From contig CAUJJC010000275.1 of assembly GCA_963204975.1 (NCBI GenBank), forward strand, positions 5,893 to 69,892: a stretch of DNA of 64,000 bases, in the 5' to 3' direction. A program made the translations under genes and the position numbers. Below are positions 14,913 to 45,265 of this stretch, piece by piece. The DNA is from Verrucomicrobiota bacterium. Lineage in GTDB: Bacteria > Verrucomicrobiota > Verrucomicrobiia > Verrucomicrobiales > Verrucomicrobiaceae. Each line of letters opens with the position of its first letter. Position 1 is the first letter of the stretch. The notes beneath the pieces were generated by a model that saw nothing but the letters and a program-made list of their open reading frames with translations, was not told where the DNA came from and made no database searches.

Positions 14913-14936
14913 GTGTCTTTGTTTGTGGTCTTATGG

Positions 14937-14954
14937 TTCAACGGGTCAGTTGAA
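14937..14954. other. Small hairpin in the B-A spacer that carries the same 10-mer core as the leader hairpins
   Basis: TTCAAC-GGGTCA-GTTGAA. Its complement contains AACTGACCCG, identical to the loop core of the hairpins at 19293-19330 and 24390-24427. Confidence 0.4.
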
Positions 14955-14970
14955 AGGGTTCAAAACTTCA

Positions 14971-17900
14971 TCAAGGCGTCGCCTCCAGCGTGGCACTGCC
15001 GCTCAGCATTCGAGACGTGCTGATCGTGGTCTTCACCGGCAGCAATGCGGGCAGCTCGGGAAGTTGGTAGAAACCGTAGCCCTTCGTGCTCGTGCCATCG
15101 TTCACGATCATACCAGCGACGACCCCTGTGCGTGTGATCGGCTTGTTAGGCACCACCGTGGTATCGGGATCGAGCAGAATGAAGGTGCCCGTGAACGAGC
15201 CCGTGGTGCCAGCCGTGAAGATCGTGCCAGAGCCTGGCGTGAGTGTGACGGTCACAATACCCGGATTCGGTGCCATAATCTTGCCGATGACCGACATGCC
15301 TGGGACCAGCTCAATCGTGTTCAAGTTCAATCGTGTAGCGGGACTTGGAGCCGCCCCACCGAAGAAGGTCATCTTGGCGTTGTTGGGTCCAGCAGTCAGA
15401 CCCATCACAATCGAGCCTGTCGCAGGTATCGCATAAGGTCCTCCACGAACCTCAAGATCAAGCGAGGGGAAGCCCGCCTTGTAGCTGCGCGTCGTGGACT
15501 TGACCGGCTGGGGCTTCTTCAGCCAGCTCAGCACCGATGCTCCCATTCGGAAGCCACCCGTAGGATTCACGTTCAGCGTGCCAAGCAGCGATCCTGTGTT
15601 GGCGTAGAGCAGCTTGAACATGCTCATCGAACCATCCGCTTCGATCGTATTCGAGAACGTCACCACGGTGGCATCGGACAACTTGAACAAGCCAGTCGCC
15701 ACGCCAGTGCCCGCTACTTTGAACGCTCCAATACTGTGACCCTGAGGCTTGGCATCGTCACTTTGGTCAGCAGGCTTGAGCAGCATCGCAAAGGTATAGT
15801 GACCAGCGTAGGAACTCAGCGCTGTGGAGGGCTGGCGTGCCGTGAAGCCTGCGGTGGCAGCACCATCACTCACACTGCCACTGAGCGCACGCGTGCCCGG
15901 AGTGACGGTGAAATTGACGGTCAATGCTGGCAGTCCGGTGCGTGCAATCGTCATGCTGGCGGTCGAGTCCACCGTCAGTCCTGAAGGGCTCAGGGTGCCG
16001 CTCAGCGGATAGGACTTCAGCCCCAGGGTCAACGTGCCTGTGTAGGTGCCTGCCTGCGTCGTTGTAATCGTGACTCTTCCCCCGAGTTCATCATTGAGCA
16101 CAGCACTGCGGCTCACCACGCCTTGATAGCTCCCCACTGTCCCAGCCGCGAGGCCAAAGACCTCCATCGTATCGCTCACCTGCACACTCGGGCCTGCCGC
16201 ATTAGTGGCGATCACGGTCACGTTGGATGTTCCCACCGTGGTGGGGTTGCCCTTGATCAAGCCGGTCGTCGAATTGTATGTCAATCCCAGAGGTAGATTG
16301 GAAATCGTGAACGATGTCGGGTTGTTCGCAGCCGTGACCTGCTTGCTGTAGTTTTCACCGACTCGTGCATCGGCCAAGTTAAGAGGATTCACGACCGGAC
16401 GCACCGGCACCTCCAGTTGCGCGACGTGACTCGTGACCTTTCCCGAGGCGTTCGAGATCACCACGGAGTATGCGCCCGTGTCAGTGCTCAGCACATTATT
16501 CATCGTCAGCGTGGCAGTGGTCGCACCGATGAGCGCGTTGCCGTTCTTCAACCACTGATAAGACAAACCCGCGCCAGTCGCAGTCACGCTCAAGGTCGCA
16601 ATGGCATTCGGCGCGACGATCTTCGACACGGGATGCACTGTGATCGTTGGCGCGGCTGTCACGGTGAGTGTCGCGGTGTTGCTTGTCGCACTGCCGTTCG
16701 TGTTGGATACCACCACGCTGAAAGTGCCTGCCACTGCGGGATTCACCGTGAGCGTCGCTGAGTCGGTGCCAACGTTTGTCGTGCCGCGTTTCCATTGATA
16801 ATGCAAACCTGATCCCGTGGCTTCGACCGTGAACGTGGCACTGCCGCCTGTCACCGCGCCTGCATTCTTCGGATGTCGCACAATCATCGGCGAACCCGCC
16901 ACTTCATCGCCATCCAGCACGCCGTCGCCATCGTGATCAATGGACATCACCTCACCCATGCCCGGCAGCACCCCCATGAAGGTCACGCTGTCTGAACCCG
17001 TGATCTGCGCGAGCAAGGCCGTGCGTGTCACGCCCCCGTTCGATGCCTTGTCGAACTTGTAATTCGTGCCCGTCCACAGCAACGAACGCTGCTGGCCTCC
17101 AATCAGGCCGCGCGCGATCACACTGGTCTCGCCAGTAGCTGCGCGAGCTTCGAGCAAAGCGATGTCCGCTAGCACACCCGTGTCGCTCTTATTCGTCGCC
17201 GTTACTGTTGGCCCATAGCCCACGATCAATCCGACTCCGGTATCGAAGCACATCATGAACGCAGTCATGTTCGCAAAGTCCGCAGGCGTGGTCAGCGAAT
17301 CGAGCACATAAGGATGCACCGTTGGCAGCGCGAAGCCCGTGCCATCGCTCAACATGCCAAAGCCCGAGACGCTGGTGTTGCCAGCGCGTGGATCAAACTT
17401 CTGCTTCTGATACACTAGCCGCAGCGATGGATTCTTGATGGGCTGCACTCGGCCAACTTCCTGAGGCAGGTCGATGTTGTTGTTGCTGCCTCGCGGCAGC
17501 TCGTGGCACAAGGCACAGTGGTTGATGTGAAGATTGAACAAGTCACGCCCGGTCGAAGGGCTCGCCCCGTTGAAGGTGGTAGGCAGCGAGCGCTCCAGGG
17601 TGCGGTTCGGGTTCGGGTGCAGCACCAGCGAAAACAGGTAGCCAGCCAGCAAGTCCATGTCCTCGGACGTTTGCAGCTCTCCGCCCATCAAGTTCTCGAA
17701 GGTGCCGTTGAAGCTCTGCAAAGTCGGCTTGTCACCACGCCAGTGGAAGGGCGCACTGCTTTGAAGATCGCGCAGCGTTTGAGTCACCATCGGTCCTTTC
17801 ATCGGATGCATGGTGCGAGTGCGTGTTTTTGAGTCGTGAATGACCGCATTGATCGCCAACGCCGTGGCCATGTCCCCACCGGGATCACCAAGATCCCAGG

Positions 17901-19242
17901 CAAGGCCATCTCGATCCGCATCAATGTGACAGGTGCCGCAGGACATCGTGCCATTGCCGCTCAGACGTGCATCGAAGAGAAAGCCACGCCCGTCCTTGAT
18001 CTCCATGGGAGTCGGATCATGTGAGCCATTTTTCACTTCGCTCGACACCGTCAGCGTGTTCGTATCCACGACGCTGATCGTGTTGGCTAACTTGTTCAAA
18101 ACAAAGAGCCGACTGCCCGCCTCATCCAGTGCCAACCCGCGAGGACCGCGCATGTTCTTGGTGCTGCCACTCGTGCGCACATCCACACGCGAGAGCACTG
18201 CGCCCGTCGCTGGATCAATCTTCGCCACACGATCCGATGCGAACGCTGCCACCCAAGCCGAAGCACCATCGCTGCTAAAGATCATGCTCATCGGCTGAGC
18301 GAGCGCGGTTGCCTGAGCTGTCTGGTTTGGCAGCGTATTGTAGTCCACGCCAGGATTCAAATCGAAGGGCGTCGTTGTCGCTGTGGTCAAGGCAATGCGA
18401 GTGACGCGATTGTCCGCGAAGTGGCCGTTGAGCATCGGTTCGAAGCGCGTGCGATTCAGCGCCTCCGTGTTTGGAATCCAGAGTTCTTCAGTGCCTGGTC
18501 GCACTGCGACATCGAACAAGTTCGTGCCCACATCGCTGAGGTAGCGAGTCACGGTTTGCGTCGTTGTGTCGATCTCAGCGACGTCGTTATCGAGCACGGT
18601 GTAGCTGATCCGTGAGTCACTCGCATCCACGATCAGAGCCGTCTTCGGAGGCGCGGGCAGATTTGCATTCGTTGGTGCGGGCTGATCGGGCGCTAGGCTC
18701 GCAGGCAGCACGGTGGTGCGATTACCAGAGAAAAGGAAGGCAGCGAAGAGCTTGGTTCCGTCCTCGCTCACGCACAGAGCGCGTGGATAGTCGCCCGTCA
18801 GTGTGATGGTGCCGAGATCAGCACGCGTGCTAGCATCAAAAACTCGAATCAAACCAGCACGAGCGCACGAGATAAACGCCTTCCCGTTCGCGAACACCAC
18901 ATCCGCCGGTTCATCGTTCACCTTGAGAGTGGCGATCACGCTGCCTGATGAAAGCGATACGACCGTCACCGTGTCCGACACTTCATTCACCACCCAGGCT
19001 TCGTCATTGGTGCGAGCACGCACGCTGACGGGATCAAGACCCACGGGCACCTCGGCGGTCAGAGCCATCGTTGAGGCATTGAAAATGGAAAGCCGTGCAT
19101 CTGGCGAATTGATCGCGAGCAGCTTCGAGTTGTCAGGCGTGAGCGCGATGGGATGCACCTGACGTGCTTCGAAGTGCGTGAACGTGGACTGCGCTGCGAG
19201 CGATGACGCGAGCGTGATACTGAGGACGAAGATGCGTAGCAT
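14971..19242 (-). CDS. Giant secreted protein B: YVTN-type beta-propeller + di-haem cytochrome c peroxidase/MauG-like domain + Ig I-set repeats + cadherin-like Ig + shared C-terminal module
   Basis: Start set at ATG 19242 (MLRIFVLSITLASSLAAQ signal peptide). Two CXXCH motifs (SCGTCH, HCALCH) plus FHWRGDKPTLQ (CCP-like). DHDGDGVLDGDE Ca-binding-like motif. HYQWKRG and SYQWLKNG Ig repeats. Confidence 0.85.
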   Translation of the reverse strand: MLRIFVLSITLASSLAAQSTFTHFEARQVHPIALTPDNSKLLAINSPDARLSIFNASTMALTAEVPVGLDPVSVRARTNDEAWVVNEVSDTVTVVSLSSGSVIATLKVNDEPADVVFANGKAFISCARAGLIRVFDASTRADLGTITLTGDYPRALCVSEDGTKLFAAFLFSGNRTTVLPASLAPDQPAPTNANLPAPPKTALIVDASDSRISYTVLDNDVAEIDTTTQTVTRYLSDVGTNLFDVAVRPGTEELWIPNTEALNRTRFEPMLNGHFADNRVTRIALTTATTTPFDLNPGVDYNTLPNQTAQATALAQPMSMIFSSDGASAWVAAFASDRVAKIDPATGAVLSRVDVRTSGSTKNMRGPRGLALDEAGSRLFVLNKLANTISVVDTNTLTVSSEVKNGSHDPTPMEIKDGRGFLFDARLSGNGTMSCGTCHIDADRDGLAWDLGDPGGDMATALAINAVIHDSKTRTRTMHPMKGPMVTQTLRDLQSSAPFHWRGDKPTLQSFNGTFENLMGGELQTSEDMDLLAGYLFSLVLHPNPNRTLERSLPTTFNGASPSTGRDLFNLHINHCALCHELPRGSNNNIDLPQEVGRVQPIKNPSLRLVYQKQKFDPRAGNTSVSGFGMLSDGTGFALPTVHPYVLDSLTTPADFANMTAFMMCFDTGVGLIVGYGPTVTATNKSDTGVLADIALLEARAATGETSVIARGLIGGQQRSLLWTGTNYKFDKASNGGVTRTALLAQITGSDSVTFMGVLPGMGEVMSIDHDGDGVLDGDEVAGSPMIVRHPKNAGAVTGGSATFTVEATGSGLHYQWKRGTTNVGTDSATLTVNPAVAGTFSVVVSNTNGSATSNTATLTVTAAPTITVHPVSKIVAPNAIATLSVTATGAGLSYQWLKNGNALIGATTATLTMNNVLSTDTGAYSVVISNASGKVTSHVAQLEVPVRPVVNPLNLADARVGENYSKQVTAANNPTSFTISNLPLGLTYNSTTGLIKGNPTTVGTSNVTVIATNAAGPSVQVSDTMEVFGLAAGTVGSYQGVVSRSAVLNDELGGRVTITTTQAGTYTGTLTLGLKSYPLSGTLSPSGLTVDSTASMTIARTGLPALTVNFTVTPGTRALSGSVSDGAATAGFTARQPSTALSSYAGHYTFAMLLKPADQSDDAKPQGHSIGAFKVAGTGVATGLFKLSDATVVTFSNTIEADGSMSMFKLLYANTGSLLGTLNVNPTGGFRMGASVLSWLKKPQPVKSTTRSYKAGFPSLDLEVRGGPYAIPATGSIVMGLTAGPNNAKMTFFGGAAPSPATRLNLNTIELVPGMSVIGKIMAPNPGIVTVTLTPGSGTIFTAGTTGSFTGTFILLDPDTTVVPNKPITRTGVVAGMIVNDGTSTKGYGFYQLPELPALLPVKTTISTSRMLSGSATLEATP

Positions 19243-19292
19243 AGAGTGCTTGGATTTTTGGAGATAGTGATCCCCTGAGTTGAGTTGCTGTT

Positions 19293-19330
19293 GCCCGCCC
19301 GTTGAAACTGACCCGAAACAACGGGCGGGC
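19293..19330 (-). promoter_or_regulatory. Conserved leader hairpin, copy 1 (12-bp stem, 14-nt loop), 51 nt upstream of the protein B start
   Basis: GCCCGCCCGTTG-AAACTGACCCGAAA-CAACGGGCGGGC on the + strand. 35/38 identical to the copy at 24390-24427, including one compensatory pair. Confidence 0.6.
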
Positions 19331-19507
19331 TTTGCAAGGCTCGTGCGAGCGGATACCGGCCGCGCACACAAACCGCGCCCCAGCGCAACCACGAGGGTGC
19401 GTTGGGGTGCAAAGTAGTCTTGGGCTTCAGCCCGTGGGAGCGAGGCAGTCTTGTCAACTGCCTGCGCGCATGTGCATCTGCGAAGGGCGGGAGCCCATCA
19501 CTGTCTG

Positions 19508-19909
19508 TTAAGCCACGAGCATCGCCATGCCGCATCGTGGCGGAGGCGTGGGTGGCATGATGAAAAGCTCGACAGCGGTTTCATCAGCCGCAGCAAAGGC
19601 TTGCTCAGGCAAGGCAGGGGCAATCACAATCATCATTCGCGCCTGGGCGATGAGTTCGATCTTCAGCTTCGCTGATGCTTCCTTAGGGTCCTTCTTTTCA
19701 GATTCGGTGCCCTTCTTGATCGCACAACACATGCGGCACGGATGCTCGCCATCAAAGGTCTGGCTCAGGCCTTCCGTGATGGATCCTTCCTTGATCGAAT
19801 AGGTCACGGCCATGCTCACCCAGGCTGCCGTCTGAAGCACAGCCCACTGCCCACCGATGGAAATCATCAAGGCGGTGAGCAGTAAGAATCTGGCGAAACG
19901 ATGAAGCAC
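19508..19909 (-). CDS. Small membrane-anchored Cys-motif protein (HPCxxCC), unknown family, paralog 1
   Basis: 133-aa ORF. TM helix FLLLTALMISIGGQWAVLQTAAWVSMAV, then FDGEHPCRMCCAIKKGTESEKKDPK and a C-terminal PPRC. About 70% identical over about 95 aa to the 24683-25063 product. Confidence 0.7.
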   Translation of the reverse strand: MLHRFARFLLLTALMISIGGQWAVLQTAAWVSMAVTYSIKEGSITEGLSQTFDGEHPCRMCCAIKKGTESEKKDPKEASAKLKIELIAQARMMIVIAPALPEQAFAAADETAVELFIMPPTPPPRCGMAMLVA

Positions 19910-24311: not shown

Positions 24312-24389
24312 AAAAAGCGAGTCTTTGATAGAGGTTTCAGATGCGCGAGATGCCTTTATCCGGGCATCGCGGAATGAGGGAAGAGTGTC

Positions 24390-24427
24390 GCCCGCCCGAT
24401 GAAACTGACCCGAAACATCAGGCGGGC
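24390..24427 (-). promoter_or_regulatory. Conserved leader hairpin, copy 2, 79 nt upstream of the cytochrome c start
   Basis: GCCCGCCCGATG-AAACTGACCCGAAA-CATCAGGCGGGC. The loop is identical to copy 1. The flanking GCGGATACCGGCCGC block is also conserved. Confidence 0.6.
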
Positions 24428-24682
24428 TATGCACGAACTCGACTGCGCGGATACCGGCCGCACATCCGAGTCACAGCATCACACAACCATGACGGTGCGT
24501 GATGGTGCAAAAGGGGCGATGACAGGGCCAGAGGGGTCTGAAGTAGTCGCTCGAAAGGCATCACTCAGAGCACGGAACTGCTCATGATCACAAGGGTCCG
24601 ACAACAACCGAACAAATCGTTAGACACCAATGCGAAGTCAAAGATGACCTTCCGCTCTTTGAACAACTAGGCTGGCCCTGCC

Positions 24683-25063
24683 TCAGGCGCAGCGCGGCGG
24701 CTGATGTGGCGGAGCCTCGGCCCTCGCCTGCGCGACTTGAGTTGCAGCACCGTGGTCCACTTCAGCGTCCGACGGTGCGATCACCACGATGGCTCTGCCA
24801 TGCGTGAAAAGCTCCAGCTTCTTCTTCGCGGTTTCCTGTTTCGGATCCTTTTTCTCAGACTCTGTGCCCTTCTTCACCACACAGCAGAGGGGGCATGGAT
24901 GCTCACCATCGAAGGTCTCGCTCAGTCCTTTTGTAAGGGAGCCCGCTTTGATCGAATAGCTGACGGCCATGCTGATCCATGCTGCTGATTGCAACACAGC
25001 CCACTGAGCACCGATGGAAATCATCAGAGCGCTCACGAGCAGGAATCTGGCGAGGCGGATCAC
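24683..25063 (-). CDS. Small membrane-anchored Cys-motif protein (HPCxxCC), paralog 2
   Basis: 126-aa ORF: FLLVSALMISIGAQWAVLQSAAWISMAV, FDGEHPCPLCCVVKKGTESEKKDPK, C-terminal PPRCA. Confidence 0.7.
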   Translation of the reverse strand: MIRLARFLLVSALMISIGAQWAVLQSAAWISMAVSYSIKAGSLTKGLSETFDGEHPCPLCCVVKKGTESEKKDPKQETAKKKLELFTHGRAIVVIAPSDAEVDHGAATQVAQARAEAPPHQPPRCA

Positions 25064-31449: not shown

Positions 31450-32130
31450 TCATGGCACCTCCAGCCGATAGCCAATCCTCGGCTCTGTCTTGATTAAACC
31501 TGTGTGCTCAGGATCAATTTTCTGCCGCAGATGCGTGAAGTGGACGCGCAGGTAGTGGCTTTGGTCCTCGGCCTGCGGGCCCCAGACTTCGCGGAGCAGT
31601 TGCCTCTGCATCACCACCTTCCCGGCGTGCTTGATGAGGAGTCGGAGCAGGGCGTATTCGATGGAGGTAAGTTTTACTTCCTCGCCTTTGAGCTTCACGA
31701 GGCGTGCCGCGAGGTCCACTTCGAGCGCACCGGTTTTGAAAACGGGTTCTTCATCAACATCAGCACTGCGCCGCATGACGGCGCGGAGACGGGCGATGAC
31801 TTCGCGGGCGTTGAAGGGCTTGGTGATGTAGTCGTCGGCACCGAGGTCGAGCGCGGTGATCTTCTCATCGGCGGCATCGCGCACGGAGATCATCACGACG
31901 GGCACGCGGCTCCATTCGCGAATGCGCTTCAGCACTTCGAAACCGGTGATGTCTGGCAGGCCGATGTCGAGCAACACAGCATCGGGCCGCGTCGATGCGA
32001 CCTCAATCAAACCCTGCTGTCCGGCCTCGCACTCGCGCACCTTCCAGCCAGCGTCCTCAAGGCAGAGTCGCAGCAACCGGCGCATGGGTTGCTCGTCGTC
32101 AATGATGAGGATGGTCGGCTGGGCAATCAT
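31450..32130 (-). CDS. kdpE: KdpE response regulator (OmpR family)
   Basis: Start set at ATG 32130 (ATGA overlap with the kdpD stop). Receiver ILIIDDE...LLDIGLPDITG. Winged-helix C-terminus LRQKIDP...TEPRIGYRL. Confidence 0.9.
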   Translation of the reverse strand: MIAQPTILIIDDEQPMRRLLRLCLEDAGWKVRECEAGQQGLIEVASTRPDAVLLDIGLPDITGFEVLKRIREWSRVPVVMISVRDAADEKITALDLGADDYITKPFNAREVIARLRAVMRRSADVDEEPVFKTGALEVDLAARLVKLKGEEVKLTSIEYALLRLLIKHAGKVVMQRQLLREVWGPQAEDQSHYLRVHFTHLRQKIDPEHTGLIKTEPRIGYRLEVP

Positions 32131-34784
32131 GCGTGTGGCGAATCCTTGCAAGGAAAGGTCATCGTGAAAACCGCACCGCCATCGGGTGCATTCGTGGCTG
32201 TGACTTTGCCGCCGAGCGCTCGCGCGAAGCCGCGCACGATACTGAGACCCAGACCGGCACCACCGGCGGGGGATTGACTGGAGCGATAGAACTTGTCGAA
32301 CAAGCGCGGCAAATCTTCTTCGGCGATGCCAGCACCATGATCACGCACAGCAAGGCTCCACTGATCACCTTGCTTTGTCGCGGTGACTTCGATGCGGCCT
32401 TCGTTGGGAGTGTAGGCGAGTGCATTGAGCAACAGGTTGGTCACACAGGCTTCGAGCAGACCGGCATCGGTGTGCACGGGTGGGAAGTTGTCGGGCACCT
32501 GGATCACGATGCGTGATTGTTGAGCGGCAGGCACATGATGATCCACCGCCGCGCGCAGCATTTCCTCGATGTCGCACCAGTCGGCCTGAGGCTTGAGCAG
32601 GCCGCTTTCAATGCGGGTCATGTCGAGCAATTGCGTGGTCACGCGCTCGAGGCGGCAAGTGGCGCTGTCCATCTCGCCGAGCAGCAGCGCGCCACGTTCA
32701 TCGGCGGGCTTGGTTTGCAAATCGAGCGAGGCACGCAGCGCCGCGATGGGTGTCTTCAGCTCGTGCGAGACGCTGTCGAGCAGTGCCTTGTGCAGGCGGT
32801 TGGATTGCTCGGCGATCTCAGCGCGCTGCATCGCGGAGGCGAGGTGCTCCTTCTCCAGCACGAGCCCGAGTTGTGCGCACAGGGCTTCGAGCAGGCTGCG
32901 TTCCTCATGTCGCAAAGTGCGACCGCTCGGCCATTCAAGCACGAGCGCACCCATGATGGAACTGCGCGTCTGCAACGGCAGGCAGGTGACACGGCTTTCC
33001 GGCAGCGTCTCGGTGAATCGTCCGGCGGCCTGACGATGCGACTGCACCCAGGTGGCAACACTCCAATCCTTGTTCGTGATGGCAAGTGATGATCCTGCCA
33101 CGGGCTCGCGCAGCAAGGAGTGATCGTTGTCGTTCCGGCGCAGTAACGCGAGAGGAGCATCGAAGAGTTCATGCAAACGCACGAGCGCACGCTGCATGGC
33201 ATCGGACTCATCCAGCGCGCCCGAAGTGAGCTGCGTAAAGCCGAGCAGCGTGGCGGTGCGTTGCTCGCGCTGACGTTCCAACTGCTGCTGCCTGCGCAGC
33301 TTCGAGGTCACATGCCCGATCACCAGTGCGACGATGAAGTAGGCGGCGAACATGATACCGTCGTGCGTCTCTTTGATGTAAAACGTGAAGCGCGGCGGGA
33401 TGAAGAGGAAGTCCCACAGCAGCGCGCTCACCGTCGCCATCACTAGGATCGGCACACGCCCCAGTCGCAGCGCTGAAAGCACGACCGCGAGCAGATAAAT
33501 CAGCGCCACCGACCAGTAGCCGATCCACGACACGGCGAACCAGCAAGCTGCGGTGAGTGCGGAGACAATGCCCAGCGCGATGCCTGTCTCGGCCAGGCGG
33601 TCTGAAGACGTGGTTGTGTTGGTGGAGATGATCTTCGGTGCCGTCGATTCGCCCCGTCTTGGTCGGACCACCTGCACATCAATGTCACCGCTGCCCGCGA
33701 TCAAGCGATCCACGAGCGAGGGCCGCCACCATGCCCACAAGTCGATACGACGCTCCGGCTTGCCCACGATGATCTGCGTAGCGTGGCGCTCTCGCGCCAC
33801 TGCCAGCACTGCATCGCTCACGCTTTGCCCGCTTGTCTGCACCACCTCGGCACCGAGCGATTGCGCCAGCGTGATGTGGCGTGTGAGAGTAGCGCGTGCG
33901 GCTTCACTCAGCACGTCTCCCGTGTCCACCGTGACCGCGAACCACGTCGCATCCAGCATCCCAGCGGCGCGTCTGGTTCGGCGAATCAGACTCTCCGAAC
34001 TCGGGCTCGGTCCGATGGCCACCAGCAGCTTCTCGTTGGTGCGCAGCGGCCCGGTGCGTTTTCGCTCAGCAGCGAACTCGCGAAAGTCTTTGCCCGCGCG
34101 CTCCGCCGCATAGCGCAGCGCGAGTTCACGCAGGGCAGTGAGATTACCCATGCGGAAGAACTGATCCGCTGCCATCGCCGCGCGCTCACCTTGATAGACC
34201 TTGCCCTCCGAGAGCCGTGCGCGCAGTTGCTCCGGCGGCAGATCAATGAGCACCACTTCATCGGCGCGATCGAGCAAGGAGTCCGGCACTGTCTCGCGCA
34301 CAGTGACGCCCGTCAGCTCTGCGACGATTTCGGCACGGCTTTCCACATGTTGAATGTTCAGCGTGGTCCACACCGAGATGCCTGCATCCAGCAGTTCGGC
34401 CACGTCTTGATGCCGTTTCGGATGTCGGCTTCCGGGCACGTTCGTGTGCGCCAGTTCGTCCACCAGGGCGATGCTTGGCCGTCGGGCAAGCAGTGCATCC
34501 AGGTCCATCTCACGCACCGTGATGCCACGATGCTCGGAGCACTTCAGCGGCACGACTTCGAGCCCCTCTATCAACGCCGCTGTCTCCTTGCGCCCATGCG
34601 TTTCTACCACGCCGATCACCGCCTCGGAGCCACGCGCTGCTTGCAGCATGGCAAACGTTTTGCCCACGCCCGGACACATGCCGAGGAACACGCGCAGCCG
34701 AGCCACCTCTGCGCGCGGCTCCTGCATCTCGGCAAGGAGCGCATCAGGATCAGGGCGATGATCGTCGTCGGACATCGGGTTCAA
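32127..34784 (-). CDS. kdpD: KdpD sensor histidine kinase
   Basis: 885 aa. KdpD N-terminal P-loop GMCPGVGKTFAML, Usp-like segment, 4 TM helices, H-box SHELKTPIAAL, G-boxes DHGAGI and GGAGLGLSIV. Confidence 0.92.
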   Translation of the reverse strand: MNPMSDDDHRPDPDALLAEMQEPRAEVARLRVFLGMCPGVGKTFAMLQAARGSEAVIGVVETHGRKETAALIEGLEVVPLKCSEHRGITVREMDLDALLARRPSIALVDELAHTNVPGSRHPKRHQDVAELLDAGISVWTTLNIQHVESRAEIVAELTGVTVRETVPDSLLDRADEVVLIDLPPEQLRARLSEGKVYQGERAAMAADQFFRMGNLTALRELALRYAAERAGKDFREFAAERKRTGPLRTNEKLLVAIGPSPSSESLIRRTRRAAGMLDATWFAVTVDTGDVLSEAARATLTRHITLAQSLGAEVVQTSGQSVSDAVLAVARERHATQIIVGKPERRIDLWAWWRPSLVDRLIAGSGDIDVQVVRPRRGESTAPKIISTNTTTSSDRLAETGIALGIVSALTAACWFAVSWIGYWSVALIYLLAVVLSALRLGRVPILVMATVSALLWDFLFIPPRFTFYIKETHDGIMFAAYFIVALVIGHVTSKLRRQQQLERQREQRTATLLGFTQLTSGALDESDAMQRALVRLHELFDAPLALLRRNDNDHSLLREPVAGSSLAITNKDWSVATWVQSHRQAAGRFTETLPESRVTCLPLQTRSSIMGALVLEWPSGRTLRHEERSLLEALCAQLGLVLEKEHLASAMQRAEIAEQSNRLHKALLDSVSHELKTPIAALRASLDLQTKPADERGALLLGEMDSATCRLERVTTQLLDMTRIESGLLKPQADWCDIEEMLRAAVDHHVPAAQQSRIVIQVPDNFPPVHTDAGLLEACVTNLLLNALAYTPNEGRIEVTATKQGDQWSLAVRDHGAGIAEEDLPRLFDKFYRSSQSPAGGAGLGLSIVRGFARALGGKVTATNAPDGGAVFTMTFPCKDSPHA

Positions 34785-35311
34785 TGCAGCGTATCCAGAG
34801 TCTGATTGAGCTTCAACACATTCACCTGGCCGTCGCCAATCAAGGCCGAGACGAGTGCTTCATCGAGGCCGCGAGCAGTGCAGACACGCTTCAACTGAAA
34901 ACGCGCGGCGTCGGCGCTAATGTGCGGATCGAGACCGCTGCCACTGGCTTGCACGAGTTCCGCAGGCACGGGTGCGTTATCAGGGAGGTTGTGAGCTTTG
35001 CGCAAGGCGGCAGCGCGATCACTGATGACTAGCTTCAAGGCGGCACTCGTGGAGCCGAGATTGCTGGCACCGCTGGGCACGGTGGCGAAAGCGGCGGCGC
35101 TCGGCCTGGGCCAGAAATAGCGTGGTGATTTGAACTCTTGAGCGAGTAACTCGGAGCCGAGCAGCTTGCCGTCAGCACCGGTGATGAGACTGCCATTGGC
35201 CTGATGAGCGAAAGCTACTCTGGCGATGCCGGTGACGAGGAGAGGATAACCGACGCCGGTGATCAAAGTCAGCGTCGCGAAGGTTAGAAGAGCATGGAGA
35301 AGTGTTTTCAT
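34781..35311 (-). CDS. kdpC: K+-transporting ATPase subunit KdpC
   Basis: 176 aa with a single N-terminal TM helix. Positioned between kdpB and kdpD. Has the SGSGLDPHIS motif. Confidence 0.9.
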   Translation of the reverse strand: MKTLLHALLTFATLTLITGVGYPLLVTGIARVAFAHQANGSLITGADGKLLGSELLAQEFKSPRYFWPRPSAAAFATVPSGASNLGSTSAALKLVISDRAAALRKAHNLPDNAPVPAELVQASGSGLDPHISADAARFQLKRVCTARGLDEALVSALIGDGQVNVLKLNQTLDTLH

Positions 35312-35367
35312 GAGAAGAACGGCCGTCCCGGTCGTAAGCAGGGTCGCGACCGAAACGGTCGTTCTCC
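35312..35367. repeat. Palindromic element, short copy (56 bp), filling the whole kdpC-kdpB spacer
   Basis: GAGAAGAACGGCCGTCCCGGTCGTAAGCAGGGTCGCGACCGAAACGGTCGTTCTCC. Its termini are an inverted repeat. It aligns to both ends of the 111-bp copy. Confidence 0.8.
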
Positions 35368-37499
35368 TAGCCGAGTTGTGTGAGGGTTAGAAGGAGGTCA
35401 ATGAGCTTGATGCCGACGAAGGGCACCAGCAGCCCGCCGAGGCCGTAGATCAGGAGGTTGCGCCTCAGCACCACGGCGGCTCCTGCGGCACGATAGGCCA
35501 CGCCTTTCAATGCCAGCGGAATGAGCGCGATGATGATCAGCGCATTGAAGATGACGGCGCTGAGAATGGCGCTCTGCGGGCTGTGCAGATGCATCAAATC
35601 GAATGACTTCAGCGGGCCGTCTCCACTGAGCGCATAAAGACCACCAAACATCGCGGGCAGAATGGCAAAGTATTTGGCCACATCGTTTGCGATGCTGAAG
35701 GTGGTGAGCGCGCCTCGCGTCATGAGCAGTTGCTTGCCGATCTCCACGATCTCGATGAGCTTCGTGGGATTGCTGTCGAGGTCCACCATGTTGCCTGCCT
35801 CGCGGGCGGCCTGCGTGCCGGTGTTCATCGCCACACCCACATCGGCCTGTGCAAGCGCGGGGGCATCGTTGGTGCCATCGCCAGTCATCGCGACGAGCTG
35901 CCCCTTCGCCTGCTCATCGCGAATGCGGCGTAGTTTGTCCTCGGGTGTCGCCTCGGCCATGAAGTCATCCACGCCTGCTTCGGCGGCGATGCTTGCGGCG
36001 GTCAATGGATTGTCGCCCGTAATCATCACGGTGCGGATGCCCATCTGGCGAAGCTGCGCAAAGCGCTCGCGGATGCCGCCTTTGACCACGTCTTTCAGCT
36101 CGATCACACCCAGCACCTGCGCGCCATCGGCGACGACGAGCGGCGTGCCACCGGATTGCGCGATAGACTTCGTGCATTGGTCCACGAGTTCGGGGAATGC
36201 GCCGCCGTTCGATTTCACCCAGGCCTTGATCGCTTCGCCAGCGCCCTTGCGCAGCGAGCGCGTGCCAAGATCCACTCCGCTCATGCGCGCCTGCGCGGTG
36301 AACGGAATAAAGGTAGCATCAAGCTCATGCAGCTCACGCCCGCGCAAGCCATGACGCTCCTTCGCCAGCACGACCACGCTGCGTCCTTCCGGTGTTTCGT
36401 CCGCGAGCGACGAAAGCTGTGCGGCCTCAGCAAGCGTCTTCTCATCAACGTCCGGCGCAGGATGAAACGCGACCGCCATGCGATTGCCGAGCGTGATCGT
36501 GCCTGTTTTATCCAGCAACAGAACAGAGATGTCGCCCGCCGCCTCGACCGCACGACCACTCGTCACGAGCACATTGCGCCGCACCAAGCGATCTATCCCA
36601 CTGATGCCAATCGCACTGAGCAAGCCGCCAATGGTGGTAGGAATGAGACAGACAAACAACGCGATCAGCACTGGCAGACTTGTGTCCACTAGAGAACGAT
36701 CAGTCTCAGTCGTTATCTGGGCCTCGGGGCGTCTAGCCCCGACAGCATCTGAAGCGTGATCGAGACGATCACGATCCCAGTTTACGACCGGGACAGATCG
36801 TTCTCCAAAATTCACAAACGATGGCAGCGTGCCGACGGCGAACACAAACACCAGCGTGAGACTTGTGAGCAGGATACTCAAGGCGATCTCGTTCGGCGTG
36901 CGTTGACGACGCGCGCCTTCAATCAATGAGATCATGCGATCCACGAAGGATTGGCCGGGCTCGCTGGTGACACGTATGAAGATTCGATCACTGAGCACAC
37001 GCGTGCCTCCAGTTACCGCGCAGCGGTCGCCACCACTTTCGCGGATCACCGGAGCGCTTTCACCTGTGATTGCCGACTCATCAACGGTCGCAATGCCAAG
37101 AATGACCTCTCCATCCGCTGCGATGATCTCTCCGGCCTCGCACACAATGGTGTCCCCCTTCACCAGATCTGCGGCAGCAACGGCATCAATCACATCGCCC
37201 TGAACTCGGCGTGCGGACTGAACCTCCCGCAGCTTACGAAGCTCCGCTGCTTGCGCCTTGCCGCGACCTTCAGCGATAGCTTCGGCGAAGTTGGCAAACA
37301 GCACCGTGAACCACAGCCAGGCCGTGAGTTGAATGTGAAACAACGTTGGCTCAACAGTGGTGACAATGGTCGTGGCGATGCTGCCGAGCCACACAGTGAA
37401 CATCACCGGATTGCGCCATTGCCAGCGTGGATCCAGCTTCCGCAAGCTGGACCAGAACGCGGGAATGAGAAGTTCTTTGGAATAGAAGGATGAGGTCAT
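35367..37499 (-). CDS. kdpB: K+-transporting P-type ATPase subunit KdpB (carries an in-frame ~38-codon repeat-element insert)
   Basis: 710 aa. [44 protein letters not shown]. Confidence 0.93.
36691..36806. repeat. Palindromic element copy inside kdpB, inverted relative to the kdpA copy
   Basis: AGAGAACGATCAGTCTCAGTCGT...ACGACCGGGACAGATCGTTCTCC. Its reverse complement aligns along the full length of 38791-38901. Confidence 0.8.
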
Positions 37500-37501
37500 G
37501 A

Positions 37502-37583
37502 GGAGAACGACCTTCTCGGTCGCGTTGCAGTGCGCGAGCTAGACGCCCGCTTGCCCAGAGGACGACCGGGACGGTCGTTCTCC
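37502..37583. repeat. Palindromic element copy (82 bp) in the kdpB-kdpA spacer
   Basis: GGAGAACGACCTTCTCGGTCGC...CCCAGAGGACGACCGGGACGGTCGTTCTCC. It occupies most of the 94-nt spacer. Confidence 0.8.
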
Positions 37584-37593
37584 GGGTGTGAAA

Positions 37594-39348
37594 TCAAAAG
37601 GTGCGACCATTATTCATGAGCATGTGCTCCACGATGGGGCCGAGCGTAAGGGCGGGCAGGAAGGTGAGGCCGCCAACGATGAGGATGACGCCGAGGAGCA
37701 GCACGATGAACAAGCCGCCATCAGTGGGAAAGGTGCCGGGACCGGGCTCAGCGATGCGCTTCTGCGCCATGCGACCAGCCAGCATCAGTGTCGGCACAAT
37801 CACGCCGAAACGTCCGACGAGCATCGCGAAGCTGAGGCCGTAGTTGTAGAAAGGAGTGTTCGCATTGAGCCCACCGAAGGCGCTGCCGTTGTTGTTTGCG
37901 GCGCTGGCCCAAGCATAGAGCGCTTCGCTGAAAGCATGCGGACCAGCATTGGTGAGGGACGCTCTGCCCGCCTCAGAGAGCACGCTCAACGCGGTGCCGA
38001 TGAGCACCACCAGACTCGGCAAGATCACGGCGACAGCAGCACAGATCACTTCGCGTGCTTCGATACGCTTGCCCAAATACTCTGGCGTGCGTCCGACCAT
38101 CAGGCCCGCTAGGAAGACGGTGAGCACGACGAACATGATCATGCCATAAAGCCCCGAGCCAACACCGCCGAAGATGATCTCGCCCAGCAGCATGTTCACC
38201 AGTGCGACGAGTCCACTCAGCGGCATGAGGCTGTCGTGCATCGCGTTGACCGATCCGTTGGAGGCAGCAGTGGTCGCGGTGGCCCACAGCGCGCTGTCTG
38301 CGATGCCAAAGCGCGTCTCCTTGCCCTCTAGCATGGTTAGCACACCGAGCGATGGATTACTCTGATGCTCTGCCCACAAGGCCGCACCCAGCCCGGTGAG
38401 CAACAGCACGAGCATGGTGGCAAACAAACACCAGCCGTGTCTGCGATGGCCGGTCATGCGGCCAAACATGAACGGGAAGCCAGCAGCGAGCGCGAGGATG
38501 GCAAAGCATTGGAGGAAGTTCGAGAGACGCGTCGGATTCTCGAACGGATGCGCCGAGTTCACGCCGAAGAAGCCGCCGCCATTGGTGCCGAGCTGCTTGA
38601 TCGCGATCTGTGAGGCCGCCGGTCCAAGAGGGATCACCTGCGCAGAACCTTCGAGCGTAGTCGCACTCGCAAACACATCAAAGGTCTGCGGCACACCCTG
38701 CTGCACGAGCACAAGCGACAAGAGAATCGAAAGCGGCAGTAGCACGTAGATCGTGGCCCGCGAGACGTCGCGCCAGAAGTTGCCCAGGCCGGAGAACGAC
38801 CGTCCCGGTCGTAAGCTGGGTTCGCGACCATCTCGGTCGCACGGAGAATCAGCGGGCGAGACGCCCACCTGCCCAGAGGACGACCGAGACGGTCGTTCTC
38901 CCAGCCCGCGCACGAGCGCCGCTGCGACTGCCATGCCCGTGGCGGCGCTGAGGAAGTTCTGCACGCCGAGTCCGAGCATCTGCGTGAGGTAACTCATCGT
39001 CGCCTCGCCGGAATAGGCCTGCCAGTTGGTGTTCGTGAGAAAGCTGATTGCCGTGTTCAGTGCCAAAGGGAACGGCACGTTTGCGAGTGACTGAGGATTG
39101 CCGGGCAGTTTCGCCTGCAGCATTTGCAGCAACATCAGCACCACGAATCCGATCCCATGAAACAGCAGCAGCGCCTTCAAATACTGCGGCCAGTTCATTG
39201 AACGCGAGGTATCGCCAGCCATCAGTTTCTCGCCCGGCAGTGGGCGTTCGACCTGGAACACCCAGGCTAGATAGCGACCGATGAACGGCGCGAGACCGAT
39301 CAGCAGTGCAAGATACAAAAGCAGTTCCAGGACATCGTCTGTTTTCAT
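37594..39348 (-). CDS. kdpA: K+-transporting ATPase subunit KdpA (carries an in-frame 37-codon repeat-element insert)
   Basis: 584 aa, polytopic. GTNGGGFFGVNSAHPFENPT selectivity-filter-type motif. First gene of the operon. Confidence 0.93.
   Translation of the reverse strand: MKTDDVLELLLYLALLIGLAPFIGRYLAWVFQVERPLPGEKLMAGDTSRSMNWPQYLKALLLFHGIGFVVLMLLQMLQAKLPGNPQSLANVPFPLALNTAISFLTNTNWQAYSGEATMSYLTQMLGLGVQNFLSAATGMAVAAALVRGLGERPSRSSSGQVGVSPADSPCDRDGREPSLRPGRSFSGLGNFWRDVSRATIYVLLPLSILLSLVLVQQGVPQTFDVFASATTLEGSAQVIPLGPAASQIAIKQLGTNGGGFFGVNSAHPFENPTRLSNFLQCFAILALAAGFPFMFGRMTGHRRHGWCLFATMLVLLLTGLGAALWAEHQSNPSLGVLTMLEGKETRFGIADSALWATATTAASNGSVNAMHDSLMPLSGLVALVNMLLGEIIFGGVGSGLYGMIMFVVLTVFLAGLMVGRTPEYLGKRIEAREVICAAVAVILPSLVVLIGTALSVLSEAGRASLTNAGPHAFSEALYAWASAANNNGSAFGGLNANTPFYNYGLSFAMLVGRFGVIVPTLMLAGRMAQKRIAEPGPGTFPTDGGLFIVLLLGVILIVGGLTFLPALTLGPIVEHMLMNNGRTF
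38791..38901. repeat. Palindromic element, full-length copy (111 bp), inside kdpA
   Basis: GGAGAACGACCGTCCCGGTCGTAAGCTGGG...CCCAGAGGACGACCGAGACGGTCGTTCTCC. Each end holds a mini-hairpin ACGACCG-N3-CGGTCGT. Confidence 0.85.
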
Positions 39349-43746: not shown

Positions 43747-44337
43747 ATGCCCGCCCCCAAAAAGACCGCCAAGAATGCCGCCGACGCCATCAATGAAAAC
43801 CTGGGCCGCCGGGTGAAGAAGCTGCGTGGTGATCGCGGCTGGTCGTTGGAAGAGCTGTCCAAGGTGAGCGGCGTGAGCAAGTCGATGCTCAGCGAGATCG
43901 AGCGCGAAAAGGCCAACCCTACGCTCAGCGTGACCTATCGCATCGCCAACGCCTTCGGCTTGAATTTGCAGGAGCTGATCGAGACCTCGGAGTCTGCCTC
44001 CGCCATTCAGGTCATCCGCAGCACTGAACGCTCGCAGGTTTATCGCTCGGACAAGCAATGCGAGATCCGCACGCTCTCGCCGCTGAACCTGGAGAAGGAA
44101 ATCGAGTTCTACCAAGTCACGCTCAAACCCAAAGGTGAACTCCGCAGCCAGGCGCACTACGAGGGCACGCGCGAGTTCCTCACCGTCGAGCACGGGGCCA
44201 TCCGCATCGAGTCCGGCAAAGACACCGCCGACCTCGCCAACCACGACTCCGCCACCTACCGAGCCGACATCCCGCACGCCATTGTGAACACGGGCAACCA
44301 GGAGGCTGTGGTGTTTCTGGTGGTGATTTATCGGTGA
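43747..44337 (+). CDS. XRE-family HTH transcriptional regulator with a C-terminal cupin domain
   Basis: Start set at MPAPKKTAKN. HTH LRGDRGWSLEELSKVSGVSKSMLSEIEREKANPT. Cupin C-terminus ...YRADIPHAIVNTG. Confidence 0.85.
   Translation: MPAPKKTAKNAADAINENLGRRVKKLRGDRGWSLEELSKVSGVSKSMLSEIEREKANPTLSVTYRIANAFGLNLQELIETSESASAIQVIRSTERSQVYRSDKQCEIRTLSPLNLEKEIEFYQVTLKPKGELRSQAHYEGTREFLTVEHGAIRIESGKDTADLANHDSATYRADIPHAIVNTGNQEAVVFLVVIYR
44208..44337 (+). repeat. Direct repeat copy 1: the 3' end of the XRE-cupin gene currently in use
   Basis: 130 bp. Matches 45137-45257 except for 6 substitutions and a 9-bp in-frame indel (GACCTCGCC). Confidence 0.9.
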
Positions 44338-44630
44338 ATGTAGAACTCAATCACAGGCTTGCGGCGTTCGATTCAGGCAGTAATCTGGCCAATATGATCG
44401 GGGCTTATGAAGAAACTGTCGCCTTTCTTGCGCGGGGAATGACTTCTGCGGAGTTGCTCGCGTTCAAGCCGTCCGAGGATGCATCAGCCCGCTTCGAGTG
44501 GCTGGTCCAAAAGGAGAAGGCGGAGGGCCTTCTCCCCGATGAGCAGGATGAACTTGATCGCACCATGGAGGTCGAGCGGGTGTTAAGTCTGGCCAAGGCA
44601 CGAGCGCGGGCATCATTAGCACATCGATAG
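44334..44630 (+). CDS. Small acidic hypothetical protein, partner of the HNH endonuclease
   Basis: 98-aa ORF with a GTG start overlapping the upstream stop (GTGA). Helical, with LLAFKPSEDASARFEWLVQKEKAEGLLPDEQDELD. Lower GC than its surroundings. Confidence 0.55.
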   Translation: MNVELNHRLAAFDSGSNLANMIGAYEETVAFLARGMTSAELLAFKPSEDASARFEWLVQKEKAEGLLPDEQDELDRTMEVERVLSLAKARARASLAHR

Positions 44631-45136: not shown

Positions 45137-45257
45137 CGAGTCCGGCAAAGATACCGCCAACCACGACTCCGCAACCTACCGAGCCGATATCCCGCACGCC
45201 ATTGTGAACACGGGCAACCAGGAGGCTGTGGTTTTCTTGGTGGTGATTTATCGGTGA
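45137..45257 (+). repeat. Direct repeat copy 2: displaced 3' end of the XRE-cupin gene, now without a start
   Basis: Encodes ESGKDTANHDSATYRADIPHAIVNTGNQEAVVFLVVIYR* with a TAG in frame upstream. Followed by the terminator hairpin. Confidence 0.9.
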
Positions 45258-45265
45258 AAATGAAG

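Follow-up and report, generated by a model that had tools for sequence, protein, structure and literature searches.

The DNA analysed here (the window, a stretch of 64,000 nucleotides) includes a kdp operon in which a 116-nt repeat lies within the coding sequence of kdpB without closing its reading frame. The question that this locus raises is how a repeat whose length is not a multiple of three, and which carries a TAA of its own, came to be accommodated in that frame. The original prediction gave the decisive role to a single extra nucleotide, gained after insertion and kept by selection in favour of an intact KdpB.

Repeat copies in the kdp operon

The genes of the operon and the repeat copies associated with them are located in the window as follows.

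32127-34784: kdpD, which abuts kdpC, with no transposase gene between the two
34781..35311, minus strand: kdpC, 176 aa
35314..35367, unstranded: remnant of a REP doublet in the kdpB/kdpC spacer, 54 nt, ending 2 nt before the kdpC ATG
35367..37499, minus strand: kdpB, 710 aa, intact, with the P-type ATPase motifs present
36691..36806, minus strand: REP doublet (REPIN-like, 116 nt), in frame within kdpB
37502..37583, unstranded: REP doublet in the kdpA/kdpB spacer, 82 nt, ending 2 nt before the kdpB ATG
37594..39348, minus strand: kdpA, 584 aa
38791..38901, minus strand: REP doublet in frame within kdpA (111 nt, 37 codons), in the orientation opposite to that of the kdpB copy

Sequence, translation and nhmmer all identify the kdpB segment as an in-frame copy of the repeat, and it can be aligned with the kdpA copy only as the reverse complement; the inversion that had been predicted is thus confirmed. 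The copies match one another by nhmmer with E-values of 1e-24 to 1e-36, and the 21-nt terminal arm has six matches in the window, as against 0.01 expected by chance. All four copies are found within 3.6 kb of the kdp operon; nhmmer detected no further ones in the other 60 kb. The copies show signs of decay. The one in the kdpA/kdpB spacer, which is 110 nt long in L084 and L091 (strains 99% identical to the window), has lost 28 nt between the direct repeats CGACCGAGAAGGTCG, the one in the kdpB/kdpC spacer measures 109 nt in L119 and is a remnant of 54 nt in the window, and the arms of the kdpB copy are mutated. The first G of the kdpB/kdpC spacer copy completes the TAG stop codon of kdpB, and the kdpA copy, which would encode GERPSRSSSG...RPGRSFS, replaces about six native codons.

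Structure and distribution of the repeat family

The repeat is a REP-doublet (REPIN-like) family of an uncultured Verrucomicrobia-like lineage. Its half-unit consists of GGAGAACG, a first hairpin (CGACC-GTCYC-GGTCG), either TAARCTGGG or TCCTCTGGG, and a second hairpin with the apex CGTCYCG. The doublet is built from two such half-units inverted relative to each other and measures 100-120 nt, with 100-140 nt for complete copies outside the window and 54-116 nt within it; lone half-units also occur (L093, L090 and L096). As single-stranded DNA, the doublet is predicted to fold into a long terminal stem bearing two small hairpins. Copies reach z-scores of -7.5 to -8.9, the kdpB copy folding at -38.1 kcal/mol (z = -8.85). 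In an alignment of 17 copies, in which the left and right halves are mutually reverse-complementary, 97.1% of the cells in the four hairpins of the doublet pair, 8 pairs show double (compensatory) changes and none of 500 shuffles reaches the observed score. For the stem formed between the arms, 95.2% of the cells pair and 7 pairs covary. No GTAG or CGTC tag is found at the ends: arms start with GGAGAACG, and CGTC is located at a hairpin apex. After hairpin 1 come TAAG, TAAA or TCCT; TAGC occurs there in a single copy.

Rfam returned no match, either for the locus by E-value threshold or for the whole window by gathering scores, and the 37-aa kdpA insert had no match among 1.84 billion representative proteins. 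A scan for the arm in 185,579 species-representative genomes, which do not include the source species, gave 83 single matches in unrelated taxa; we attribute them to chance because nhmmer matched only the seeded 20 nt. Pattern searches in metagenomes gave 26 matches, of which 16 correspond to unrelated coding sequence (L089, L092, L095, L097, L099, L101, L103 and L105-L113). GGAG, a motif too short for significance, occurs in the native loop of both L085 kdpB and L086 kdpA.

Association with a RAYT-type transposase gene

In five unrelated metagenome contigs (L096, L114, L115/L116, L117/L118 and L119) the repeat is present on both sides of a RAYT-type gene, which in L119, a close relative, is located between kdpC and kdpD. 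In L096 the corresponding ORF (356-1096), situated between inverted half-units, matches Pfam Y1_Tnp with 26 bits (gathering score 23) and NCBIfam REP_Tyr_transpos with E = 3e-19 and 69.3 bits, below the curated cut-off of 80. The HUH motif (HVH) and the catalytic tyrosine (RYxxxNP) are invariant across 7 homologues, and JGI annotates homologues as RayT. As the 64-kb window has no RAYT gene, the association for this locus is drawn from its relatives. A RAYT-type HUH tyrosine transposase that acts on hairpins in single-stranded DNA is the most likely agent of the family's mobility. ORF calls are also inflated by the repeats; in the L119 transposase, for instance, a repeat encodes the predicted N-terminus.

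With 21-nt terminal inverted repeats, a size of 54-116 nt in the window and 100-140 nt when complete elsewhere, and no transposase gene in the window, the element would also fit a classical DDE-derived MITE independent of any RAYT. Nevertheless, comparison of filled and empty sites revealed no target-site duplication at any of the four loci, native bases having been lost in kdpA and in kdpB; no gene other than the putative Y1/HUH transposase gene of the five contigs is repeatedly flanked by the repeat, and the arms themselves are covarying hairpins. We consider such a MITE highly improbable, and the same judgement covers the notion that the kdpB insert is an assembly artefact or the mark of a pseudogene, which is excluded by its occurrence in four independent assemblies (the window, L084, L091 and L119) and by dN/dS values of 0.05-0.07.

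Insertion site and reading frame in kdpB

The kdpB copy corresponds to about 39-40 residues (ending in ...TETDRSL) in the TM3-TM4 loop. Alignment with E. coli KdpB structures breaks at residues 251/252, between TM3 and TM4, and this places the insert in the loop just ahead of the CLIPTTIGG helix, as predicted. KdpB of L085, L086 and L087 lacks the insert and has a conserved 12-aa loop instead, and the same is true of the other aligned homologues, P0005, P0006, P0008, P0023, P0027, P0072 and P0105; most of the best 120 KdpB matches are 688-693 aa long. The KdpB sequence of the window has no exact database match on record. An AlphaFold2 model of KdpB, built on a 12-sequence alignment, is too poor to position the insert (mean pLDDT 52, pTM 0.30).

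Compared with L085, L086 and L087, about 34 nt of the native kdpB loop are replaced by a 118-nt segment made up of the 116-nt copy and 2 junction nucleotides, a net gain of 84 nt. As 116 nt is not a multiple of three, the frame is kept only because the stretch of native loop was lost, and the integrity of the kdpB frame depends on the net length, loop deletion included. The frame used by kdpB corresponds to reverse frame 3 of the consensus, and it is free of stops in the consensus too. Four of the six frames of the 111-nt copy are open, so that, as had been proposed, both orientations can be read through. The open frames of the kdpA and kdpB inserts are kept in three to four diverged lineages, a conservation which suggests that the KdpB insert is translated. 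An intein or an intron was ruled out by size, by the missing motifs and by the maintenance of the open frame across lineages.

The extra nucleotide has a mirror-image counterpart and predates the window/L119 split

Three further positions of the kdpB copy have to be considered here.

about 36702, minus strand: mirrored extra nucleotide in the opposite arm
36782..36784, minus strand: the TAA of the element, out of frame in kdpB
36795..36795, minus strand: extra nucleotide, a T in the gene strand, located in the arm that forms the 5′ end when read along the gene; within GATCTGTC it could equally be placed one base to either side (+/-1)

The kdpB copy reads GGAGAACGATCTGTC where the other copies of the window read GGAGAACGACC-GTC, and because of this one extra base the TAA falls out of the kdpB frame; to this extent the original prediction stands, although it missed the mirrored base of the opposite arm. 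In the orthologous copy of L119 a C occupies the position of the extra nucleotide (GATCCGTC) and the opposite arm reads GACCCGTC, the two extra bases forming a C-G pair inside the 15-bp terminal stem. The paired form of the doublet can be written GACCCGTC...GACGGGTC. Since both extra bases are found in L119, at a dS of 0.73, they are older than the split between the window and L119. The +1 falls at a CC/GG run, and non-coding copies in L093, L117, L098 and L088 have it at the corresponding place; in L096 it occurs in both arms flanking the RAYT gene.

Whether the extra base is the ancestral state was assessed on the consensus of the 17 aligned copies. The majority consensus, to which 14 of the 17 conform, is without it, so that the extra base does not represent the ancestral form of the family. 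The comparison indicates that it is a minority variant which already existed in the family, and which this copy had before the window/L119 split.

According to the original prediction, a canonical copy with an in-frame TAA would have been inserted and a later +1 would have been selected as a rescue of KdpB; the model further takes in a second indel that restored the downstream frame. Several observations are in keeping with this. When the extra bases are removed at the same phase, the copy has two in-frame stops. Among the local copies of the window, as among the six of L119, the extra bases are confined to the one in kdpB, as a selective origin predicts. Moreover, a gain after insertion is less improbable than at a random site because the CC/GG run is a slippage hotspot, and the +1 recurs in the family. 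The Kdp system is dispensable when K+ is plentiful, and a null intermediate could therefore persist for a time. Nonetheless, such a null intermediate would have to be followed by two separate +1 events at mirror-image positions, which in L119 form a Watson-Crick pair. In addition, a copy without the extra bases but with the same junctions would add 82 nt and be out of frame as well, the +1 variant is found where no frame is at stake, RAYT-flanking arms included, and both extra bases predate the window/L119 split. On balance we regard a corrective gain after insertion as unlikely.

Selection on kdpB and on the insert

The dN/dS of the kdpB core is 0.069 against L119, which bears the same insert, and 0.054 against L085. 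The gene is under strong purifying selection and is therefore not a pseudogene; the claim that selection keeps kdpB intact is borne out, and a non-functional gene is contradicted by both values. This substitution pattern indicates that, once the insert was in place, purifying selection continued to act strongly on the pump gene. The insert peptide evolves faster, with a dN/dS of 0.31 versus 0.07 for the rest of KdpB, 32 of its 40 residues being identical as compared with 92% for KdpB overall. The inserts have been kept over a dS of about 0.7-1.0.

This retention could also mean that the copies have been co-opted by the operon, either as mRNA hairpins acting in stability, processing or translational coupling, or as loop peptides that aid the pump. 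The confinement of all four copies to 3.6 kb at the kdp operon would fit such a role, as would the two spacer copies, each ending exactly 2 nt ahead of the next start codon. Third codon positions are also slower inside the in-gene copies: between the window and L119, 15 of 76 differ there, as against 447 of 1212 in the rest of kdpA and kdpB (Fisher p = 0.002). Clustering is, however, more simply accounted for by local spread from a transposase gene within the operon, as in L119, and third positions can also be slowed by gene conversion between the copies or by a transposase that still interacts with them. Furthermore, the copies of the window are decaying and shortening, the insert peptide changes faster than KdpB, the operons of L086 and L087 are intact with no copies, and no terminator-like sites fall on the copies. 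Co-option is, for these reasons, rather improbable in our judgement.

A related and speculative idea, to which we give little credence, is that the transposase-repeat system is tied to the kdp operon, its hairpins or loop peptides having a role in the expression or assembly of the Kdp pump. This idea draws on L119, with its transposase gene between kdpC and kdpD and its doublets in both spacers and at two loop-coding sites, and also on in-gene nucleotides conserved beyond the level of synonymous sites.

Proposed course of events

Taken as a whole, the locus is probably best explained by a RAYT-mobilised REP doublet which replaced part of a loop and whose extra base was inherited and not a later repair. 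Copies are absent from the kdp operons of L086 and L087, two are found in the part of the operon covered in L085 (the contig ends inside kdpC), four in the window, and six, plus the transposase gene, in L119. Judging from this presence and absence, an ancestor of the window lineage would have received the copies in kdpA and the kdpA/kdpB spacer (common to L085), and those in kdpB and the kdpB/kdpC spacer would have come later (common to L119 only). The kdpB copy landed in the periplasmic TM3-TM4 loop, where the segment bearing the element replaced 34 nt; the frame was kept and would be read, free of stops, as about 40 added residues. The extra nucleotide may be understood as one half of an added base pair of the terminal stem, a +1 at the CC/GG run in both arms. 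This +1 appears to be a recurrent polymorphism of the family, and the copy most likely brought it at insertion or gained it very early. Selection would thus have acted as a filter, in that only the combination of variant, phase and deletion leaving kdpB open persisted, and presumably not through the fixation of a later corrective indel. One point against this explanation is the loss of bases at the in-gene sites, which the classical RAYT/IS200 "peel-and-paste" does not explain.

Filled and empty sites across relatives offer here a timed series of invasions, and two membrane subunits of a P-type ATPase complex appear to tolerate repeat-encoded loops of 37-40 residues over long evolutionary time. 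The locus also advises caution: what looks like a frame-saving indel within a coding copy can have been inherited as a structural variant of that repeat, here a paired extra base in the stem, and the frame may instead be preserved by an accompanying deletion of host sequence.

Comparison with known systems

The closest known counterparts are the REP/REPIN-RAYT systems (Nunvar 2010; Bertels & Rainey 2011, PMC3116915; Di Nocera et al. 2013, PMC3733652). As in these systems, short hairpin units are paired in inverted orientation and the resulting doublet folds into a long hairpin, one RAYT-type gene, putatively of the Y1/HUH class, lies between repeats (REPtron), there is no target-site duplication, and most copies are found in spacers beside gene ends, where the end of a repeat provides a TAG stop codon. 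Such systems have tens to hundreds of copies per genome; the 64 kb analysed here contain four, all of them in the kdp operon. Two published REP superfamilies are defined by a GTAG or CGTC tag (Di Nocera 2013, PMC3733652), whereas the units described here start with GGAGAACG, without either tag, and are longer than published REPs (about 50 nt, with two hairpins each). Intragenic in-frame REPs occur in many species, and those of the GTAG type are more numerous in the verrucomicrobium Opitutus terrae than in any other (Di Nocera et al. 2013, PMC3733652). Single REPs of that survey encode 7-8 aa and doublets 20-30 aa (PMC3733652), as compared with 37-40 aa for the present inserts. The loss of native bases at both in-gene sites is a further difference from REP/REPIN-RAYT systems.

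The mycobacterial interspersed repetitive units (MIRU) also share features with the present repeat. These elements, attributed to Supply et al. 1997, are said to lie in the spacers of polycistronic operons, abutting or overlapping the flanking stop and start codons, and reportedly are tandem direct repeats with small ORFs. The two spacer copies of the kdp operon likewise adjoin or overlap stop and start codons; they are, in contrast, hairpin doublets with a RAYT association. Bacterial MITEs (Correia, ERIC, Nezha and others) resemble the repeat in being small and non-autonomous and in having terminal inverted repeats, and some of them lie inside genes as in-frame fusions (PMC10969869), but they depend on DDE transposases and generate target-site duplications, which are not seen at the loci compared here.

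The Rickettsia palindromic elements (RPE; Ogata et al. 2000 Science, reviewed in PMC10969869) are likewise palindromic repeats of ~100-150 bp, found in frame in unrelated housekeeping genes, read through and tolerated in surface loops. We liken them to the present repeat as functional analogues only, given the unrelated host phylum and the lack of any evident sequence relationship. RPE have no known dedicated transposase, whereas the repeat described here flanks a RAYT-type gene, and in-gene copies number two in this study as against dozens for RPE. In-frame insertion of REP or RPE sequences is thus already known from Rickettsia and Opitutus, and the kdpB case adds to this known kind.

Four copies of the element within the kdp operon

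Profile searches of the window detected four copies of the element, a REP doublet, every one of them located inside the kdp operon. Its 21-nt arm, GGAGAACGACCGTCCCGGTCG, occurs six times at ≤3 mismatches, against 0.01 expected.

Genes of the kdp operon and element copies (window coordinates)
37594-39348, - strand: kdpA
38791-38901: element copy, 111 nt, in frame in kdpA
37502-37583: element copy, 82 nt, kdpA/kdpB spacer
35367-37499, - strand: kdpB, 710 aa
36691-36806: element copy, 116 nt, in frame in kdpB
35314-35367: element copy, 54 nt, kdpB/kdpC spacer
34781-35311, - strand: kdpC
32127-34784, - strand: kdpD

Only after reverse complementation does the kdpB copy align with the kdpA copy, and one arm of the kdpB copy contains one base more than the other copies (GAACGATCTGTC vs GAACGACC-GTC), which shifts the TAA of the element out of frame. 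Sequence and alignment hence bear out the original prediction as far as it described an inverted, in-frame kdpB copy with an extra arm base that displaces this TAA.

The half-unit, of about 50 nt, reads GGAGAACG, hairpin 1, TAAACTGGG, hairpin 2, and the full element is an inverted doublet of half-units. In an alignment of 17 copies, pairing is 97.1% over the four local hairpins, with compensatory changes in 8 pairs, and 95.2% over the terminal arm-arm stem, with compensatory changes in 7. Folded as single-stranded DNA, the copies reach -38 to -46 kcal/mol (z about -8). No Rfam family matches the element. A pattern scan of metagenome contigs provided genuine copies in L088, L090, L091, L093/94/100/102/104, L096 and L098; the remaining 16 matches were unrelated.

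The spacer copies lie very close to the coding sequences. The TAG stop codon of kdpB (window 35365-35369), TAA in copy-free relatives, takes its last base from the kdpB/kdpC spacer copy, whose first nucleotide is this G, and the next ATG begins exactly 2 nt after the end of each spacer copy (window 35312-35316 and 37497-37503). The native spacers of relatives show a CTCC motif where the spacer copies end.

Empty sites and distribution among relatives

The best relatives of the window KdpB are all metagenomic, with Verrucomicrobia or Chthoniobacteraceae as the nearest that carry a name, at about 71% identity. The same insert is present in homologue P0001 (710 aa, 99% identity). It is absent from P0002, P0003 and P0004 (88, 85 and 81% identity; 682-684 aa) and also from the more distant aligned homologues P0005, P0006, P0008, P0023, P0027, P0072 and P0105. 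Most of the best 120 KdpB matches are 688-693 aa long, and the aligned insert-free homologues conserve the loop length, e.g., PSFTNFAIKAAGRDGAAADTSLPVL. DNA alignment with contigs L084-L087 shows that in kdpB 34 nt of native loop are replaced by a 118-nt element-bearing segment (net +84 nt); in kdpA, about 6 codons are replaced by the 111-nt copy. At none of the four sites did contig alignments with relatives reveal a target-site duplication.

When KdpB is aligned to E. coli KdpB structures, the alignment is interrupted at residues 252/251, in the TM3-TM4 loop; the original prediction had placed the insert in the loop ahead of the CLIPTTIGG helix. The TM3-TM4 loop is periplasmic in P-type ATPases. 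In kdpA, the insertion falls at the position of E. coli KdpA residues 155-158.

Element copies in the kdp region of the window and of related contigs
L086, L087: zero copies
L085: kdpA and kdpA/kdpB spacer only; the contig stops inside kdpC, kdpD onward being outside its coverage
L091: kdpA, spacer and kdpB; the 4.9-kb contig stops inside kdpB, the kdpB/kdpC spacer being outside its coverage
window, L084: all four sites
L119: all four sites, and two extra copies flanking a transposase gene

L119, from an activated-sludge assembly, shares 81.8% nucleotide identity with the window over kdpCBA and 92% identity in KdpB.

The extra nucleotide in the kdpB copy

When the extra bases are removed at the same phase, two in-frame stops appear. 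A second extra base, at about 36702, mirrors the first in the other arm of the kdpB copy. In the orthologous copy of L119 (arms GGAGAACGATCCGTC... and ...GACGGGTCGTTCTCC), both extra bases form a C-G pair within an unbroken 15-bp stem; in the window both are retained, but later mutation of each has left a T.T mismatch. As kdpB dS between the window and L119 is 0.73, the paired extra base is older than their split. A +1 at this CC/GG run is present in non-coding copies too: in L093, in one arm each of L117, L098 and L088, and in both arms flanking the L096 transposase gene. By reading of the sequences, roughly 6 of about 34 non-coding arms carry it, and on this evidence the +1 is a recurrent polymorphism of the repeat family.

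The proposal that the extra base is a frame-restoring indel is therefore not upheld, the base being mirrored, paired in L119, older than the split and present in non-coding copies. A later rescue would take two mirror-image slippages by way of a null intermediate, and we regard it as improbable, even though the extra pair is confined, among local copies, to the one in kdpB, at a site prone to slippage. The reading frame of kdpB through the element corresponds to reverse frame 3 of the consensus, which is open in the consensus; as 116 is not divisible by 3, the frame downstream survives only because 34 nt of host sequence were lost along with the insertion. The simplest history is that a variant copy, already with the extra bases, inserted into kdpB, and that insertion and deletion together left the gene open. 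Selection would then have acted as a filter, letting persist only what left kdpB open.

Selection on kdpB, conservation and decay of the copies

That selection keeps KdpB intact, as originally proposed, holds: all catalytic motifs are present, and comparison of the window with L119, which shares the insert, gives a core dN/dS of 0.069, and with L085 one of 0.054. The original interpretation thus stands as regards in-frame insertion, orientation, loop location and selection on kdpB, but not as regards the frame-restoring indel. An open reading frame runs through the insert in the window, L084, L091 and L119, and of the six frames of the window copy only the one used is open. Between the window and L119, 32 of 40 insert residues are identical; dN/dS of the insert region is 0.31, so that as protein it is tolerated rather than strongly constrained.

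At the nucleotide level, third codon positions of the in-gene copies (38791-38901 and 36691-36806) differ between the window and L119 at 15/76 sites vs 447/1212 elsewhere in kdpA and kdpB (Fisher p = 0.002), about half the rate, and differences in the copies lie mostly in the central spacer. This suggests nucleotide-level constraint or gene conversion; possible causes are gene conversion among copies, continued constraint by the transposase and a functional role of the hairpins.

Decay is also apparent. The kdpA/kdpB spacer copy measures 82 nt in the window (37502-37583) vs 110 nt in 99%-identical strains (L084:604-713, L091:3532-3641), owing to a 28-nt deletion between direct repeats CGACCGAGAAGGTCG. 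A similar deletion is found in the L085 spacer copy, and hence the deletion is either recurrent or polymorphic. The kdpB/kdpC spacer retains a 54-nt remnant vs 109 nt in L119, and the window kdpB copy has four arm substitutions.

Association with a probable RAYT-type transposase

A 246-aa ORF lies between two inverted half-units in L096. It scores 26 bits with Pfam Y1_Tnp, above the gathering score of 23, and 69 bits (E = 3e-19) with NCBIfam REP_Tyr_transpos, under the cut-off of 80. Its homologues in Verrucomicrobiaceae, Verrucomicrobiales and Prosthecobacter bear the JGI name "REP element-mobilizing transposase RayT"; the homologues conserve the HUH motif and the catalytic Tyr without exception, and in four more of them, on independent contigs, the same repeat is found on both sides of the gene.

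In L119, this probable RAYT-type transposase gene, bracketed by two doublets (L119:1625-2599, equivalent to about 34767-34813 of the window), is located between kdpC and kdpD, which offers an economical explanation of why the copies cluster in the operon. The window and L084 have no transposase gene between kdpC and kdpD, which abut; the gene may have been gained in L119 or precisely lost elsewhere. Translation of the upstream doublet (L119:1625-1740) yields what is predicted as the N-terminus of the L119 protein (MENDRLGRNLGWW...YDRDGRS), probably an over-extended gene call.

Other repeats in the window

A separate 48-nt hairpin-forming repeat (TGTTGCCCGCCCGTTG...CAACGGGCGGGC) occurs at 19289-19336 and 24386-24433 (90% identical), and a 280-nt repeat (74% identity) at 19617-19896 and 24774-25053, about 5.1 kb apart. 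These two repeats may represent a duplicated gene cassette or a second repeat family. A pair of very large ORFs on the - strand (11445-19392; 1155 and 1473 aa) contain internal repeats of a period of about 543 nt and have paralogous segments in common, spaced 3517-3520 nt; they are probably repeat-domain surface proteins. A 104-nt direct repeat (95% identity) occurs at 44235-44338 and 45155-45258, 920 nt apart.

Comparison with known systems

In-frame palindromic repeats are already documented as the RPEs of Rickettsia (PMC10969869). [quoted passage not shown] The kdp element differs from REPIN-RAYT systems in having neither a GTAG nor a CGTC tag; in most of their defining features, the kdp element system behaves as they do.
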